From the sequence record PQ863256.1: a DNA stretch of 64,000 nucleotides. The stretch is one strand, 5' to 3'. The first letter of the stretch is position 1. Every line of letters begins with the position of its first letter. The position numbers and the translations under genes were made by a program. Positions 43,310 to 48,264 of the stretch are shown here, one piece after another. Source of the stretch: Escherichia phage Ptacy1479. The notes beneath the pieces are model-generated. The model was not told where the DNA came from. It was given only the letters and a program-made list of their open reading frames with translations, and did not search any database.

Positions 43310-43519
43310 TTAATATTCCTTGATTGGGGATACCACAAAACCACCAAGAGGTGAGGTAAAAGATTTATGTAAGCTTATTTTGCTATAAATCTTTGGAGCC
43401 ATCTTAAGAGCCTTCTTAAAACGACGAGCATCTTTACGAGTAGCAAAATGCTCTGTAACAGGTATAGAATGGTCTTGGTAGATATAATACATCACCGTCC
43501 AGTATTTTCCCATAATCAA
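43310..43519 (-). CDS. small basic protein, member of 4-copy paralog family
   Basis: shares W.V...F.TRK.AR.FKK...H pattern with 44996/45205/45414. Confidence 0.45.
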   Translation of the reverse strand: MIMGKYWTVMYYIYQDHSIPVTEHFATRKDARRFKKALKMAPKIYSKISLHKSFTSPLGGFVVSPIKEY

Positions 43520-43788
43520 ACACCTAGTGCAGTAGTTAAAAATGCTTTCAGGTTTGCCTCAGTCTGCATACCAGAGAGGCTGTAGTGTGCGCCACTGTTA
43601 CGGTCAGGTACGACGAAAGCGGGTATGCTTCGTACACCATATTTAACAGCTTGTTCACGACCATCTCCTTCAAGGATATTGATCTCTTCCACTTCTACAT
43701 CAAACTCCCTAACAACCCTCTCAAAGGTGGGAGCCATTGCTTTACATGGAGCACACTGATCACTATAAAACTTAATTACTTTAGACAT
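43516..43788 (-). CDS. thioredoxin
   Basis: 90 aa; CAPC active-site CxxC at residues 12-15, thioredoxin-like size. Confidence 0.7.
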   Translation of the reverse strand: MSKVIKFYSDQCAPCKAMAPTFERVVREFDVEVEEINILEGDGREQAVKYGVRSIPAFVVPDRNSGAHYSLSGMQTEANLKAFLTTALGV

Positions 43789-43976: not shown

Positions 43977-44037
43977 ATATCTATATCCTTATAAATAAGT
44001 TCGCCCCACCTCGGGTTAGGAGACAGGGCGGAGGTTT

Positions 44038-44601
44038 TTAGTAAGACACGTCGCCACTTGAATGGGACATGTTGCTCTTGACGAAGTAGCAATACTTGCC
44101 AAGACCTTCATTAATTTCTTGAAGCATACTCTGATCGACAGGGTAGGATGCTAAATCGCCATCAAACTCATCCATCTTCTCAATAATACACATCAAGGTC
44201 ATGCACATATCAGAGAGCATACCGTCCATGTCTAGATCAGCATTACCCTCTGAAAACCAAGCATGGGAGAGGTAGTTAGCCGCTGTAGCATCCACCTTAA
44301 CACAGTGATATCGCATACGTTCAGCAATACGATCTCCTACTTGTCGTGCGTAATCTTCCATCTCATCAAACATACCATGAACACCCTGAAATCCTGCACC
44401 AGAGACGTTCCAGTGGTAGTTTTTAGCTTTGATATGCAAGAGTTCCATGTTAGCTTGTAAGCAGCTCAGGATGTGTTCTAGGCTGTTTCCACTAATCATA
44501 CCCTGCATTGTTTCAAGGCGAGAGATTGAAAGCTCAGACCGGTCTAACACACTATAGCTGTCACGACCAATCTCAGGTAAATCAAAAACATTCTTATGCA
44601 T
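44038..44601 (-). CDS. dps: Dps-family ferritin-like protein (start revised to Met17)
   Basis: KAKNYHWNVSGAGFQGVHGMFDE...DRIAER with ferroxidase-position His, His, Asp, Glu conserved. Confidence 0.7.
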   Translation of the reverse strand: MHKNVFDLPEIGRDSYSVLDRSELSISRLETMQGMISGNSLEHILSCLQANMELLHIKAKNYHWNVSGAGFQGVHGMFDEMEDYARQVGDRIAERMRYHCVKVDATAANYLSHAWFSEGNADLDMDGMLSDMCMTLMCIIEKMDEFDGDLASYPVDQSMLQEINEGLGKYCYFVKSNMSHSSGDVSY

Positions 44602-44923
44602 TTGGGTTTTCTCCATCAAGTTCAACTGAATTAGCAACATTACGTGCAATATTATCCATTACCTGCTGGGTAATTACGATGCAGTTCTGCGGGTCTACTG
44701 ACTTAGAACGCCCCATTTCAGGGTCATACACCTTAACTCGTTTAGCAGTTGAACCTGTAACCTGAAGAACCTTCAATAGATATCCCTGATTACCAATAGA
44801 CCAAGCAACAACATCACGATTCTTGATAAAGCGACCAAGCATATCACGATGATAAAACTGTTGCATCACCTTGGATTTTGTAATCTCTTCAGTGGGCGGG
44901 GCCACTTTACTCAAATCTAACAT
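44594..44923 (-). CDS. hypothetical protein
   Basis: AATGTATA-containing element about 39 nt upstream; 109 aa. Confidence 0.5.
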   Translation of the reverse strand: MLDLSKVAPPTEEITKSKVMQQFYHRDMLGRFIKNRDVVAWSIGNQGYLLKVLQVTGSTAKRVKVYDPEMGRSKSVDPQNCIVITQQVMDNIARNVANSVELDGENPNA

Positions 44924-44995: not shown

Positions 44996-45205
44996 TCAGT
45001 AGTAAATTACTTTAGACATAAAAGAACCCGAGCTAGGGTCTTCGTACCAGCGATGAATGTCAGCACTTTTAACAGTTCCTATTAGAGCTTTCACATTCTT
45101 TTTAGCGACACGAGCCTCTTTGCGAGTGTTAAACAGTTTGATATTATCTTTACCTAAGTGTTGTTTCTGTTCCCAAACAACACGAACAGCCCACATCTTT
45201 TTCAT
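44996..45205 (-). CDS. small basic protein, tandem paralog 1
   Basis: 69 aa; TRKEARVAKK motif. Confidence 0.5.
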   Translation of the reverse strand: MKKMWAVRVVWEQKQHLGKDNIKLFNTRKEARVAKKNVKALIGTVKSADIHRWYEDPSSGSFMSKVIYY

Positions 45206-45414
45206 TAGTAATGTACCTTTCCGCTGATATAAATACGACCAGAGGAATACTCCTTGGCCTTATGGATACTAATGCTCTTAGTTAAGTCCATATTGAACAT
45301 AGACTTTTTAAAATCTCGAGCTTGTTGACGGGTGGGCAGTGCAGTCATAGTCATACCACCTGATGCCCACTTAATCTTCGCTAACCAGAACTGTCTCATG
45401 GTGATTGGTCTCAT
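45205..45414 (-). CDS. small basic protein, tandem paralog 2
   Basis: 69 aa; TRQQARDFKK motif. Confidence 0.5.
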   Translation of the reverse strand: MRPITMRQFWLAKIKWASGGMTMTALPTRQQARDFKKSMFNMDLTKSISIHKAKEYSSGRIYISGKVHY

Positions 45415-45611
45415 TAATAATAAACCTTACTATTTGCCATAAAAGCACCTTCGCTATTCATGAAAGCTTTACCAATACTAACCTTGTTAAGTCTAAAAGT
45501 AGACTTGTATTGATTTTTGACCCTACGTGCGTGCTCTCGAGTATTAACAAAATCTACAGCTACCAACTCTCCAGACGTGTTATCATGTACACGAACAATC
45601 CACTTTTTCAT
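45414..45611 (-). CDS. small basic protein, tandem paralog 3
   Basis: 65 aa; TREHARRVKN motif. Confidence 0.5.
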   Translation of the reverse strand: MKKWIVRVHDNTSGELVAVDFVNTREHARRVKNQYKSTFRLNKVSIGKAFMNSEGAFMANSKVYY

Positions 45612-46361: not shown

Positions 46362-47708
46362 TTAGCGAATGTTTTGTGAATTTATTAAGTGGTCCAGTTC
46401 TCCACCAACCTGAGGCTCTAATACTTCAGGATTGTTGGCAACAAACCGATCAGCGAGACTGCGGCTGACAGTCTCAGCAAGTTCGTCATGAGAAGGAGTA
46501 TCAAGATCGGAGAGACTACCTACCACATCTTGAGCCACGCCTTCATCAGTCCAGATAACACGAGAAGGGGCGTTGATATCACCAACAGCGAAACCTTGAC
46601 CAGAGAACTGGTGACGGCTAACAGTAAAACCATTTGATCGACCACGAGAAGGACTAGATATCCATCTCTCCATAGAATCCCTTGTAATACCAAGAGCTTC
46701 TTCAAAAGATGTTCTACGAGTAGGGCTTTCTCTTCGTGACTCTTGTGCTCGACGCATTGCAGGGGCTACAAACACCCCTTCAATTGCATTGTGTCGGTTA
46801 GGTTCTTCCCGACCAAGCAGATCACCACCCGTGTTGGTTGTTAAGTTTGTCAACCCTTCAGACCAATATGCTCTTATCTGACTAGAGCCATGAACACTTG
46901 ACATTAACTGAATCTCTTCATAAGGGATTCCAAAGAATCGACTCATGTCACGATTAACACAATACTGAGCACTTGTTGTGTCCTCAATAAGAGCAACCTG
47001 ACCTCGTTCGTTGACCAGATGACTAACTGGTTGAGGTGTGGGAAGGTATCGAGTTTGGGCCATGTATTGATGTGCAGCTGCTGGAGAGGAAAATCTCAAC
47101 ACTTGCGAGTTAGGCCACTTCTTGTGAACATACCTGATTTCACGACTAGAAACAACCACTGGACAAGGGGCGGTCATAGCCAAATATCCATGAGAAGTCA
47201 TGAATAAGTTGTCAAGAGTCATCGCACCACGACACATCATAGGAAAATTATCCAATACCTCTTCAATAGAAGTAGGATAATTAAACATGAATTGGATACG
47301 AACCCCATTCCACTGAAACTCAATAATATCAGTGAATGTTAATTGAGAACTCCCAGCATAGGATTCGTTTGTAGCTTCAGCAAGAAGGGATGCATATTCA
47401 ACATCTTGTGACTCTAGCCATTCCTTCACATTACTTTCAATCTCTCTTCCAAGAGCTTGCCAACGATCAGTTGGGACGAAAGTATTTTGAGTTCTTGGTG
47501 TTTGTCCTCTGACAATAAAGATATCAATGTCATGTGGAGCTGTGTTATTAAGCACAGCATCACGAACAGCCCCACCAGTAATGATGGGACAGATACCGTC
47601 TGGAACTAAATTGTTGTTAATCAACTGTTCAATGAAGTGACGACCAACAGTGATATCAGGTTGTTGAGCAACCTTATCTTCAATTTGGTTAATCGGGATA
47701 ACAATCAT
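46362..47708 (-). CDS. nucleotidyltransferase with CCA-adding / poly(A) polymerase-type head domain (start revised to Met20)
   Basis: IITGGAVRDAVL...HDIDIFI matches GGxVRD...DxD head motif; C-terminal half Ser/Arg-rich, unassigned. Confidence 0.55.
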   Translation of the reverse strand: MIVIPINQIEDKVAQQPDITVGRHFIEQLINNNLVPDGICPIITGGAVRDAVLNNTAPHDIDIFIVRGQTPRTQNTFVPTDRWQALGREIESNVKEWLESQDVEYASLLAEATNESYAGSSQLTFTDIIEFQWNGVRIQFMFNYPTSIEEVLDNFPMMCRGAMTLDNLFMTSHGYLAMTAPCPVVVSSREIRYVHKKWPNSQVLRFSSPAAAHQYMAQTRYLPTPQPVSHLVNERGQVALIEDTTSAQYCVNRDMSRFFGIPYEEIQLMSSVHGSSQIRAYWSEGLTNLTTNTGGDLLGREEPNRHNAIEGVFVAPAMRRAQESRRESPTRRTSFEEALGITRDSMERWISSPSRGRSNGFTVSRHQFSGQGFAVGDINAPSRVIWTDEGVAQDVVGSLSDLDTPSHDELAETVSRSLADRFVANNPEVLEPQVGGELDHLINSQNIR

Positions 47709-47709
47709 T

Positions 47710-48264
47710 TTACATTTTCCAATATAATGAAGGTGGGTCGTAAGGGTCAAATCCCGTGAGTTCACACAAGAAAAGATAAACCTTAACAGTTAAGTTAACG
47801 TCCTGTTCACAATAAGTAAACATATCTTCAGTGAAAGCATCCCATGCTTCCTCTTGCTCACCGTAATCACCTTTAAGTTCCTCTAAGAACTCACCCCATT
47901 GCTTCAAACCATGACCTCTTGGGCCACGTCTAGGGTCGCCTTTCGGGTACTCAGGACTGTCACCAATACGGTCAGGTTTAAGATATCGACTAAGACATAA
48001 AGTGTCAAAGACGTTAAAATGATATTTAATCAAAGAAGGATACATCTTCTTCAGAGCAGGTAAGTCGAAGTCAATGATATTATGACCAACGAGCACATCA
48101 GCTTCTGTAAGTTTACGAATCCCATCTTCAATTTGGTGAGGCCGATAGCCCCACCTTTCACCAGATTCAACATCGAAGATATAAATACACCATACTCTAG
48201 TTATGTCATCGTACAGTGCATTACTCTCGATATCAAATGCAAACACTTTCTTTTTCTTTACCAC
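47710..48264 (-). CDS. 3'-5' exonuclease (DnaQ-like), stand-alone proofreading domain
   Basis: FDIES (Exo I), GHNIIDFD (Exo II), YCEQD (Exo III). Confidence 0.7.

Follow-up and report, generated by a model that had tools for sequence, protein, structure and literature searches.

An acidic Dps-family mini-ferritin, with a ferroxidase site intact by sequence, encoded by a phiEco32-like phage of Escherichia coli

Introduction

Why would a strictly lytic phage of Escherichia coli carry its own mini-ferritin? The question is raised by an open reading frame of Escherichia phage Ptacy1479 (PQ863256.1), of which a stretch of 64,000 nucleotides, called here the window, was analysed. The window belongs to a Kuravirus (Gordonclarkvirinae; phiEco32-like prolate podophage of E. 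coli), and across the 3 kb surrounding the gene, 96% of the nucleotides are shared with Escherichia phage Paul and 91-95% with numerous further Kuravirus genomes. An initial annotation, made from the sequence, had described the product as a phage-encoded mini-ferritin of the Dps family, and the identity to phage Paul bears out that it is phage-encoded.

As an annotation, the Dps assignment is not new. The protein shares 97.9% identity with phiEco32 gp67 (YP_001671812), whose record carries the text "DNA binding protein; member of the Dps family", a family label that dates from the 2008 genome record. The gene thus adds little as a discovery: the Dps label has been attached to it in phiEco32-like phages since 2008, and two papers discuss it (PMC4281155, PMC7881722). 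No functional study, biochemical or genetic, of any phage Dps was found in the literature searched.

Results

The gene, its start codon and its conservation

The open reading frame, as delimited mechanically, covers 44649..44038 and encodes 203 aa from a TTG codon. The ribosome-binding site, the N-termini of the homologues and the RefSeq annotations led us to discard this start and to adopt the ATG at 44601. A GGAG lies 9 nt 5' of the ATG, within the 3' end of the upstream gene, and phage Paul has a ribosome-binding site annotated at the corresponding place. The homologues likewise begin with MH(K/N)N, and the identical 564-nt CDS is found in the RefSeq annotation of phages Paul and phiEco32. 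The ATG is located inside the final codons of the upstream frame (ATGCATAA), with an overlap of 8 nt and the upstream stop at 44596..44594. Therefore, the ribosome-binding site, the homologue N-termini and the RefSeq CDS support a start at Met17 of the longer frame, overlapping the upstream stop, as had been proposed. The resulting protein has 187 aa, a mass of 21.2 kDa, a pI of 4.72 and the N-terminus MHKNVFDLP. The strand of the gene had been left unstated in the initial annotation, of which all the other observed details were confirmed. The features of the locus are collected in Table 1.

Table 1 Features of the Dps locus and the evidence on which each was placed.
Feature	Position	Strand	Evidence
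Dps-family mini-ferritin CDS, phiEco32 gp67 orthologue	44038..44601	-	Pfam, phmmer, PHROG, AlphaFold2, Foldseek
Residues 58-95: end of helix A and helix B with ferroxidase ligands and W64	44317..44430	-	alignments
42-residue net-acidic N-terminal extension of the Kuravirus-type clade	44476..44601	-	alignment, composition
GGAG ribosome-binding site	44611..44614	-	spacing; annotated in phage Paul
gp68-like CDS, 109 aa, pI 8.8	44594..44923	-	phrog_10984, E 1.9e-64
AAATGTATATA, -10-type element of middle promoter P68	44961..44971	-	position, near-identity to phiEco32
Terminator-like hairpin (weak evidence), 8 nt after the Dps stop	44002..44030	-	folding
gp66-like hydrophobic (membrane) protein, 59 aa	43797..43976	-	phrog_9296, E 3.6e-34
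Thioredoxin, 90 aa, CAPC active-site motif	43516..43788	-	PF00085, E 1.3e-12

Pairwise dN/dS values of the Dps gene within the group are 0.03-0.05, and the gene is under strong purifying selection. Three plus-strand frames antisense to it (44263-44460, 44429-44557 and 44508-44765) were rejected as genes: none shows homology, and the dN/dS of the minus frame is about 0.05.

Family membership, fold and ferroxidase site

We examined the family assignment by profile, sequence and structure comparison. In the HMM search that the initial annotation had proposed, the protein matched PF00210 (Pfam Ferritin) with 30.3 bits, above the gathering cutoff of 24.5 (E 4.4e-7), although only residues 55-109 align; this is its sole Pfam match. 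A phmmer search against all PDB chains gave 59 matches at E<=1, nearly all of the Dps family, with a best E of 4.1e-9 and the best alignments spanning residues 51-176. The highest ranking of these are Mycobacterium smegmatis Dps2, Bacillus subtilis MrgA and Bacillus anthracis Dlp-2 (E 4e-9 to 1e-8). The protein also matches PHROG 3636 (E 4.7e-55), and a profile search recovers thousands of Dps proteins.

The AlphaFold2 model, built on an alignment of 73 homologues, has a mean pLDDT of 89, exceeding 95 over residues 41-176. The predicted fold is a four-helix bundle with the Dps topology (helices A 41-65, B 71-98, C 125-150 and D 154-176); the long B-C loop holds an additional short helix (107-112), and the fifth E helix of 24-mer ferritins is absent. 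The best 50 Foldseek matches of this model in the PDB are all Dps proteins, many of them with an rmsd of 1.1-1.6 Å over about 135 residues, and the TM-score reaches 0.91. The best solved relatives, M. smegmatis Dps2 (2z90, 4m35) and B. anthracis Dlp-2 (1jig), share 24-26% identity with the phage protein (E about 4e-9 to 1e-8), superpose with an rmsd of 1.1-1.3 Å over 134-135 residues and have identical ferroxidase ligands. The features that set the phage protein apart from them are a 42-aa acidic N-extension, an 11-residue C-tail, 5 Cys, 8% Met and a Y-P-V-D pore motif.

The peptide on which the initial annotation had drawn, KAKNYHWNVSGAGFQGVHGMFDEMEDYARQVGDRIAER, corresponds to residues 58-95 and contains the ligand spacing H-x11-H-x3-D-x10-D-x3-E. 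Residues H63, W64, H75, D79, D90 and E94 align with H51, W52, H63, D67, D78 and E82 of E. coli Dps, and with H31, W32, H43, D47, D58 and E62 of the Listeria innocua protein; both reference sequences agree with their published numbering. All six residues are invariant in the phage homologues (16/16), down to 48% identity. Five of them (H63, W64, H75, D90 and E94) are invariant in 73/73 sequences including bacterial Dps at about 25% identity, while D79 is replaced by Glu in some of the bacterial homologues of this alignment. The alignment of the ligands and their invariance agree with the earlier statement that the ferroxidase-site residues are all conserved. Since these ligands come from two subunits, their conservation implies that the protein would form at least a two-fold dimer.

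Profile, PDB matches, predicted structure and conservation together uphold the Dps-family call (InterPro IPR002177): as judged from sequence and model, the product is a Dps-family mini-ferritin with an intact ferroxidase site.

In Dps proteins with an acidic, ferritin-like three-fold pore, conserved Asp residues of the C-D loop and of the beginning of helix D serve iron entry. The corresponding region of the phage protein is rich in acidic residues (D145, E146, D148, D150 and D156). In the Kuravirus-type clade, however, the usual D-x-V-T pore motif has lost its Asp and reads Y-P-V-D, and because of this alteration iron entry may differ.

Relatives, distribution and database labels

The genes of phiEco32 (gp67), SU10 (gp67) and Paul (gp069) are the same gene as the one described here, with 96-98% amino acid identity and the same 564-nt CDS, and they share the neighbours gp68, gp66, thioredoxin and ThyX as well as the P68 promoter region. 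There is no difference of substance from these phages, and the window represents another Kuravirus isolate, with about 96% nucleotide identity to Paul. Records with a copy of the gene at >=80% identity number 97, and those with the surrounding 3 kb number 98. It is thus found in essentially every Kuravirus/Gordonclarkvirinae record, and also in Grimontviridae, Lahexavirus and other phages. The initial annotation had called the accessory function unusual. This description does not hold for a gene that is long annotated as Dps-family and is, under strong purifying selection, essentially universal in this strictly lytic group of E. coli phages.

The Dps proteins of Grimontviridae and Lahexavirus (7-11, Privateer, Cronobacter, LAh_9 and BUCT695) are 31-44% identical to the phage protein and lie in the same nucleotide-metabolism neighbourhood. 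At 146-156 aa they are shorter, and in place of the long acidic extension they have short N-tails. E. coli Dps (1dps) has the family and the ferroxidase ligands in common with the phage protein, but its sequence similarity is only marginal (E 0.1-0.16), among the weakest of the PDB matches. In profile searches the scores run from 125 to 345 bits for the phage clade and then drop to 82 bits for bacterial Dps, and an exhaustive phmmer search over 1.84 billion representatives returned only 13 proteins below 1e-10. All three NCBIfam equivalogs compared gave scores below their cutoffs, namely NF006975 (34.5 vs 114 bits), NF041388 (33 vs 170) and NF052461 (18.4 vs 300); the enterobacterial model is the one with the cutoff of 114 bits. 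As these scores are far under the cutoffs, the phage protein is not an orthologue of any characterised Dps.

A recent capture of the host dps was considered and rejected, given the weak match to E. coli Dps, the equivalog score far below cutoff and a GC content of the gene (0.433) like that of the window (0.424). The weak similarity to E. coli Dps together with this equal GC content instead argues for an old phage lineage of Dps.

The labels attached to the gene in databases are of two kinds. Among the matches listed, 14/60 records carry 'integrase' or 'putative integrase'. An integrase identity was rejected, since Ferritin is the sole Pfam match and there is no catalytic domain of a tyrosine or serine recombinase, so that the label is a misannotation. 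This mislabelling is widespread and appears not to have been stated before. It could wrongly flag such lytic phages as temperate where lifestyle or safety screening relies on these labels. The second label, 'DNA binding protein', is found in phiEco32, Paul, SU10 and PHROG 3636, and is misleading in another way, as the Kuravirus sequence does not support it (see below).

Upstream partner, promoter and expression

The overlapping upstream gene, which encodes the gp68-like protein, is translationally coupled to the Dps gene. Its product has no match in Pfam, NCBIfam or PADLOC, and its dN/dS is 0-0.06. Homologues with 31-37% identity lie directly 5' of the Dps gene, with TAATG-type junctions, in Privateer, LAh_9 and BUCT695, and a 72%-identical copy is found directly 5' of Dps in uncultured 100-kb contigs. 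The coupled gp68-like gene is common to most Grimontviridae/Lahexavirus Dps loci; in phage 7-11 the homologue adjoins thioredoxin, not Dps. The pairing of the two genes is conserved across divergent phage lineages, a point that has apparently gone unstated. Together with the virion report from Privateer given below, this coupling may bear on why a lytic phage carries its own mini-ferritin.

The AlphaFold2 model of the gp68-like protein is a small five-stranded beta-barrel with a C-terminal helix (pLDDT 68). A Foldseek search of the PDB with this model gave generic SH3-like barrels (Tudor, KOW, PWWP) at E >= 0.014, which is not significant. Naming a function from these barrel matches was rejected, the E value and the pLDDT being too weak. 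It is a guess that the acidic Dps shell uses the gp68-like protein as an adaptor.

The 72-bp gap 5' of the gp68-like gene carries AAATGTATATA and differs from the phiEco32 sequence at 1 nt. In phiEco32, P68 is a middle promoter dependent on gp36 and gp79 that has been used experimentally; gp36 is the phage sigma factor, while gp79 activates P68 and shuts off sigma70 and sigmaS transcription (PMC12276001). The reported middle promoter motif is tAATGTATAtA, and the middle-gene block comprises genes 25-68 (PMC4281155). A search of the whole window for the 9-mer TAATGTATA with one mismatch allowed found 18 occurrences against 18.7 expected, i.e. no enrichment. The assignment to P68 thus rests on position and near-identity to phiEco32. 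With the P68 site placed in the gap before the gp68-like gene, the Dps gene is, by sequence, the predicted second cistron of the first middle transcript.

Downstream of the Dps gene, a hairpin was found with an 11-bp stem, a 7-nt loop and the tail AACTTATTTA, which is a poor T-tract. Its stem is identical in SU7, where the loop is different. Because the hairpin is energetically unremarkable (-15.9 kcal/mol, z only -1.5), it is treated as a possible attenuator, on weak evidence.

[quoted passage not shown] As this sample was prepared by PEG only and contained these further proteins, the detection proves expression and not location.

Proposed role during infection

Considering the above, the phage Dps is probably a ferroxidase-active mini-ferritin of mid-infection, which would remove Fe(II) and H2O2 during phage DNA replication. 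The grounds for this reading are the family membership, the fold, the conservation of the ligands, the purifying selection, the promoter context and the expression of the orthologue. By analogy with the family, we infer dodecamer formation, ferroxidase activity and a protective role. The roles that the initial annotation had suggested, in protecting replicating or packaged DNA or in handling iron and oxidative stress, are plausible.

In the proposed mechanism, the gene would be transcribed mid-infection from P68 by the host RNA polymerase carrying gp36, and translated in tandem with the upstream gp68-like protein. Subunits would pair on the two-fold axis, H63 and H75 of one and D90 and E94 of the other (with D79) forming the ferroxidase centres, and twelve subunits would close into a hollow shell, like the dodecamers of 23 symmetry of the family. 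The Dps family prefers H2O2 as oxidant. Fe(II) would accordingly be oxidised preferably by H2O2 and the Fe(III) stored inside, so that both Fenton reagents would be removed while phage DNA replicates beside the flavin-dependent ThyX and other nucleotide enzymes. By the time the protein acts, host transcription would already have been silenced by the phage, leaving the host unable to switch on a dps and thioredoxin response of its own.

Simple detoxification does not account for the conserved acidic N-extension or for the coupled gp68-like partner, and the presence of the Privateer homologue in CsCl-purified virions hints at a role outside the cytoplasm.

Possible association with the virion

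A capsid-associated, packaged Dps is an unlikely alternative that is nevertheless suggested by published data. As Dps particles or as their subunits, the protein would sit in or on the long prolate head and shield the genome from iron and peroxide damage outside the cell, which can be likened to the ferritin-like cargo inside encapsulin shells. The Privateer homologue was detected by mass spectrometry in CsCl-purified virions, where only ten phage proteins were verified (PMC7881722). However, iron-loaded or DNA-bound Dps could plausibly co-band with phage in CsCl, and the detection in SU10, from a PEG-only preparation, speaks for expression only. The location of the gene in the middle replication and nucleotide module, and not in the late structural block, also argues against packaging.

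The N-extension of the Kuravirus-type clade could be a targeting or docking peptide. It has the conserved motifs MH(K/N)NVFDLP and S-x-x-RL(E/D)-x-M, with an invariant R28, and a helix is predicted at residues 19-37 with low confidence (pLDDT 60-70); the Privateer Dps, however, does not have this extension. The BFVD fold matches include putative Dps domains in long uncultured-phage proteins named 'Prohead protease', which would fit packaging, but when other long proteins with a Dps domain were scanned against Pfam and PHROG, only the ferritin domain and one PHROG of no named function came up. The more specific version, in which the Dps shell, perhaps with the gp68-like partner, is a virion component and the acidic N-extension its docking peptide, is judged quite improbable. 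If true, it would make the protein a phage counterpart of the ferritin-like cargo in encapsulins.

Charge of the termini and DNA binding

The initial annotation had taken DNA binding by Dps as established background. The Lys-rich N-terminal tail of E. coli Dps mediates DNA binding, and the phage protein is without such a tail. A Lys/Arg-rich DNA-contacting tail was sought at both termini and none was found. The N-terminal 42 residues hold 4 K+R vs 7 D+E, and the C-terminal 11 residues contain no K or R. A basic DNA-contacting tail is a feature of the DNA-binding Dps members, not of the whole family. The N-tails of the relatives in Salmonella phage 7-11, Proteus phage Privateer and Aeromonas phage BUCT695 are short and basic, with charges of +3 to +5, vs a near-neutral tail in LAh_9. 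This split between acidic and basic tails among the clades seems not to have been described.

We considered that the protein might bind or condense DNA, coating phage or host DNA, with iron chemistry being secondary; for the Kuravirus protein this reading is doubtful to a high degree. The database labels point to it, as do the basic N-tails of the 7-11, Privateer and BUCT695 relatives, which are like that of E. coli Dps. The SH3/Tudor/KOW-like barrel fold often binds nucleic acids, and the basic gp68-like protein, with its barrel model, could be an adaptor. These fold matches are, however, not significant (best E 0.014 with the pLDDT of 68), and the label seems to have been carried over from the name of the family. 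With a pI of 4.7, a net-acidic 42-aa N-extension and no basic tail, the premise of DNA binding does not carry over, and direct DNA binding in the manner of E. coli Dps is unlikely. The "DNA-binding" label is plausible for the 7-11, Privateer and BUCT695 proteins; given the acidic pI and the missing Lys-rich tail, it is unsupported for the Kuravirus form.

Nucleotide-metabolism neighbourhood and thioredoxin

The Dps locus lies within a replication and nucleotide-metabolism module in every lineage examined. The neighbours in Kuravirus and 7-11 are dCTP deaminase, ThyX, thioredoxin and PhoH, and those in Privateer are dCTP deaminase, thioredoxin and a small NrdD-like ORF just downstream. NrdD is found near Dps with NrdG/ATP-cone in LAh_9, with GrcA in BUCT695 and with ThyX in the uncultured contigs. 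No annotated ribonucleotide reductase is present in phiEco32-type genomes. A defence or anti-defence role was dismissed, PADLOC having given only a meaningless 13-bit match.

These neighbourhoods, always of nucleotide metabolism, with NrdD, NrdG, GrcA or ATP-cone genes beside or near Dps in LAh_9, BUCT695 and the 100-kb contigs and thioredoxin conserved alongside, would fit an iron buffer or donor for iron-dependent nucleotide enzymes in the dNTP surge (host di-iron NrdAB here, the phage NrdD/NrdG Fe-S proteins in the relatives) with thioredoxin as reductant, but this is the least probable of the readings considered, since phiEco32-type genomes have no annotated reductase of their own, being neighbours in a replication module is a weak argument for a common pathway, and no Dps is known to deliver iron to a ribonucleotide reductase.

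Returning to a mini-ferritin that removes iron and peroxide in mid-infection, the phage thioredoxin would provide the thiol-based part of this protection. The initial annotation had placed this gene about 250 bp downstream; it starts exactly 250 nt past the Dps stop, with the ORF of the membrane protein between them, and it matches PF00085, with TIGR01068 below cutoff.

The acidic extension and cysteine content of the phage Dps protein

The Dps-family mini-ferritin of Ptacy1479, the orthologue of phiEco32 gp67, presents the 42-residue acidic N-terminal extension of the Kuravirus type, whereas the shorter homologues of Salmonella phage 7-11 (MLGARPKRPAP), Proteus phage Privateer and Aeromonas phage BUCT695 (MARDMIRSRPSLRRESNS and MKQILTARPGSKRKAG, respectively) carry short, basic tails at the N-terminus. 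This difference in sequence suggests that the DNA-binding capacity differs between the Kuravirus-type and the short-tailed clades.

The protein contains five cysteine residues (Cys47, Cys100, Cys133, Cys138 and Cys171), of which Cys133 is almost invariant within the phage clade, and 8% methionine, with a DMCMTLMC stretch within helix C. The nearby thioredoxin exhibits a CAPC active-site motif instead of the canonical CGPC, and scores 46.8 bits against the NCBIfam thioredoxin equivalog, under the cutoff of 96.8 bits. A redox link between the two proteins is conceivable.

Organization of the locus

The gp68-like and Dps genes are translationally coupled, and the position of the former immediately 5′ of the latter is kept across phage lineages with just 31–37% identity. 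The gp68-like protein is basic and has no Pfam match; it is modelled as a small SH3/Tudor-like barrel with a helix. Past the Dps stop codon lies a hairpin, the 11-bp stem of which is the same in SU7, with a loop of different sequence and length. With an energy z-score of only −1.5, it may be a partial terminator delimiting a highly expressed gp68-gp67 unit.

Features around the Dps gene (all on the minus strand)
Feature	Coordinates	Description
Small ORF	43310-43519	phrog_4939
Thioredoxin	43516-43788	
Hairpin	44002-44030	8 nt past the Dps stop codon
Dps	44038-44601	
gp68-like CDS	44594-44923	109 aa, phrog_10984
Small ORF	44996-45205	phrog_4939
Small ORF	45205-45414	phrog_4939
Small ORF	45414-45611	phrog_4939
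467-aa protein	46362-47765	weak PolyA_pol head-domain match at most

The gp68-Dps-thioredoxin block is flanked by a total of four paralogous ORFs of 65–69 residues, which have in common a TR(K/Q/E)xAR motif and a C-terminal tyrosine; three of them form a tandem array in which the stop codon of one ORF abuts the start codon of the next. The gene of the 467-aa protein is placed between those of a dCTP deaminase and an exonuclease; its product reaches 20.8 bits against the PolyA_pol head domain, under the cutoff of 23, with no assignment for its C-terminal half, and its counterparts in relatives are annotated as nucleotidyltransferase.

Annotation and domain context of Dps homologues

Among the GenBank matches listed, the Dps homologue is labelled "integrase" or "putative integrase" in 14 of 60 phage records (e.g. 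PP989838, MN508615, MW741821, NC_070986, KP308307 and MZ398243). The sole domain in the mislabelled protein is ferritin-like. The label is a propagated misannotation, which could mislead lifestyle or safety screens.

Dps-fold domains were also detected in the BFVD predicted structures, within long proteins of uncultured Caudovirales called "Prohead protease" (A0A6J7XDU5, 333 aa; A0A6J7WPK9, 763 aa; A0A6J7WIS1, 432 aa). These putative fusions, if real, would place Dps domains inside the procapsids of some phages. Further Dps-fold-containing BFVD proteins from uncultured Caudovirales span 290–679 residues.
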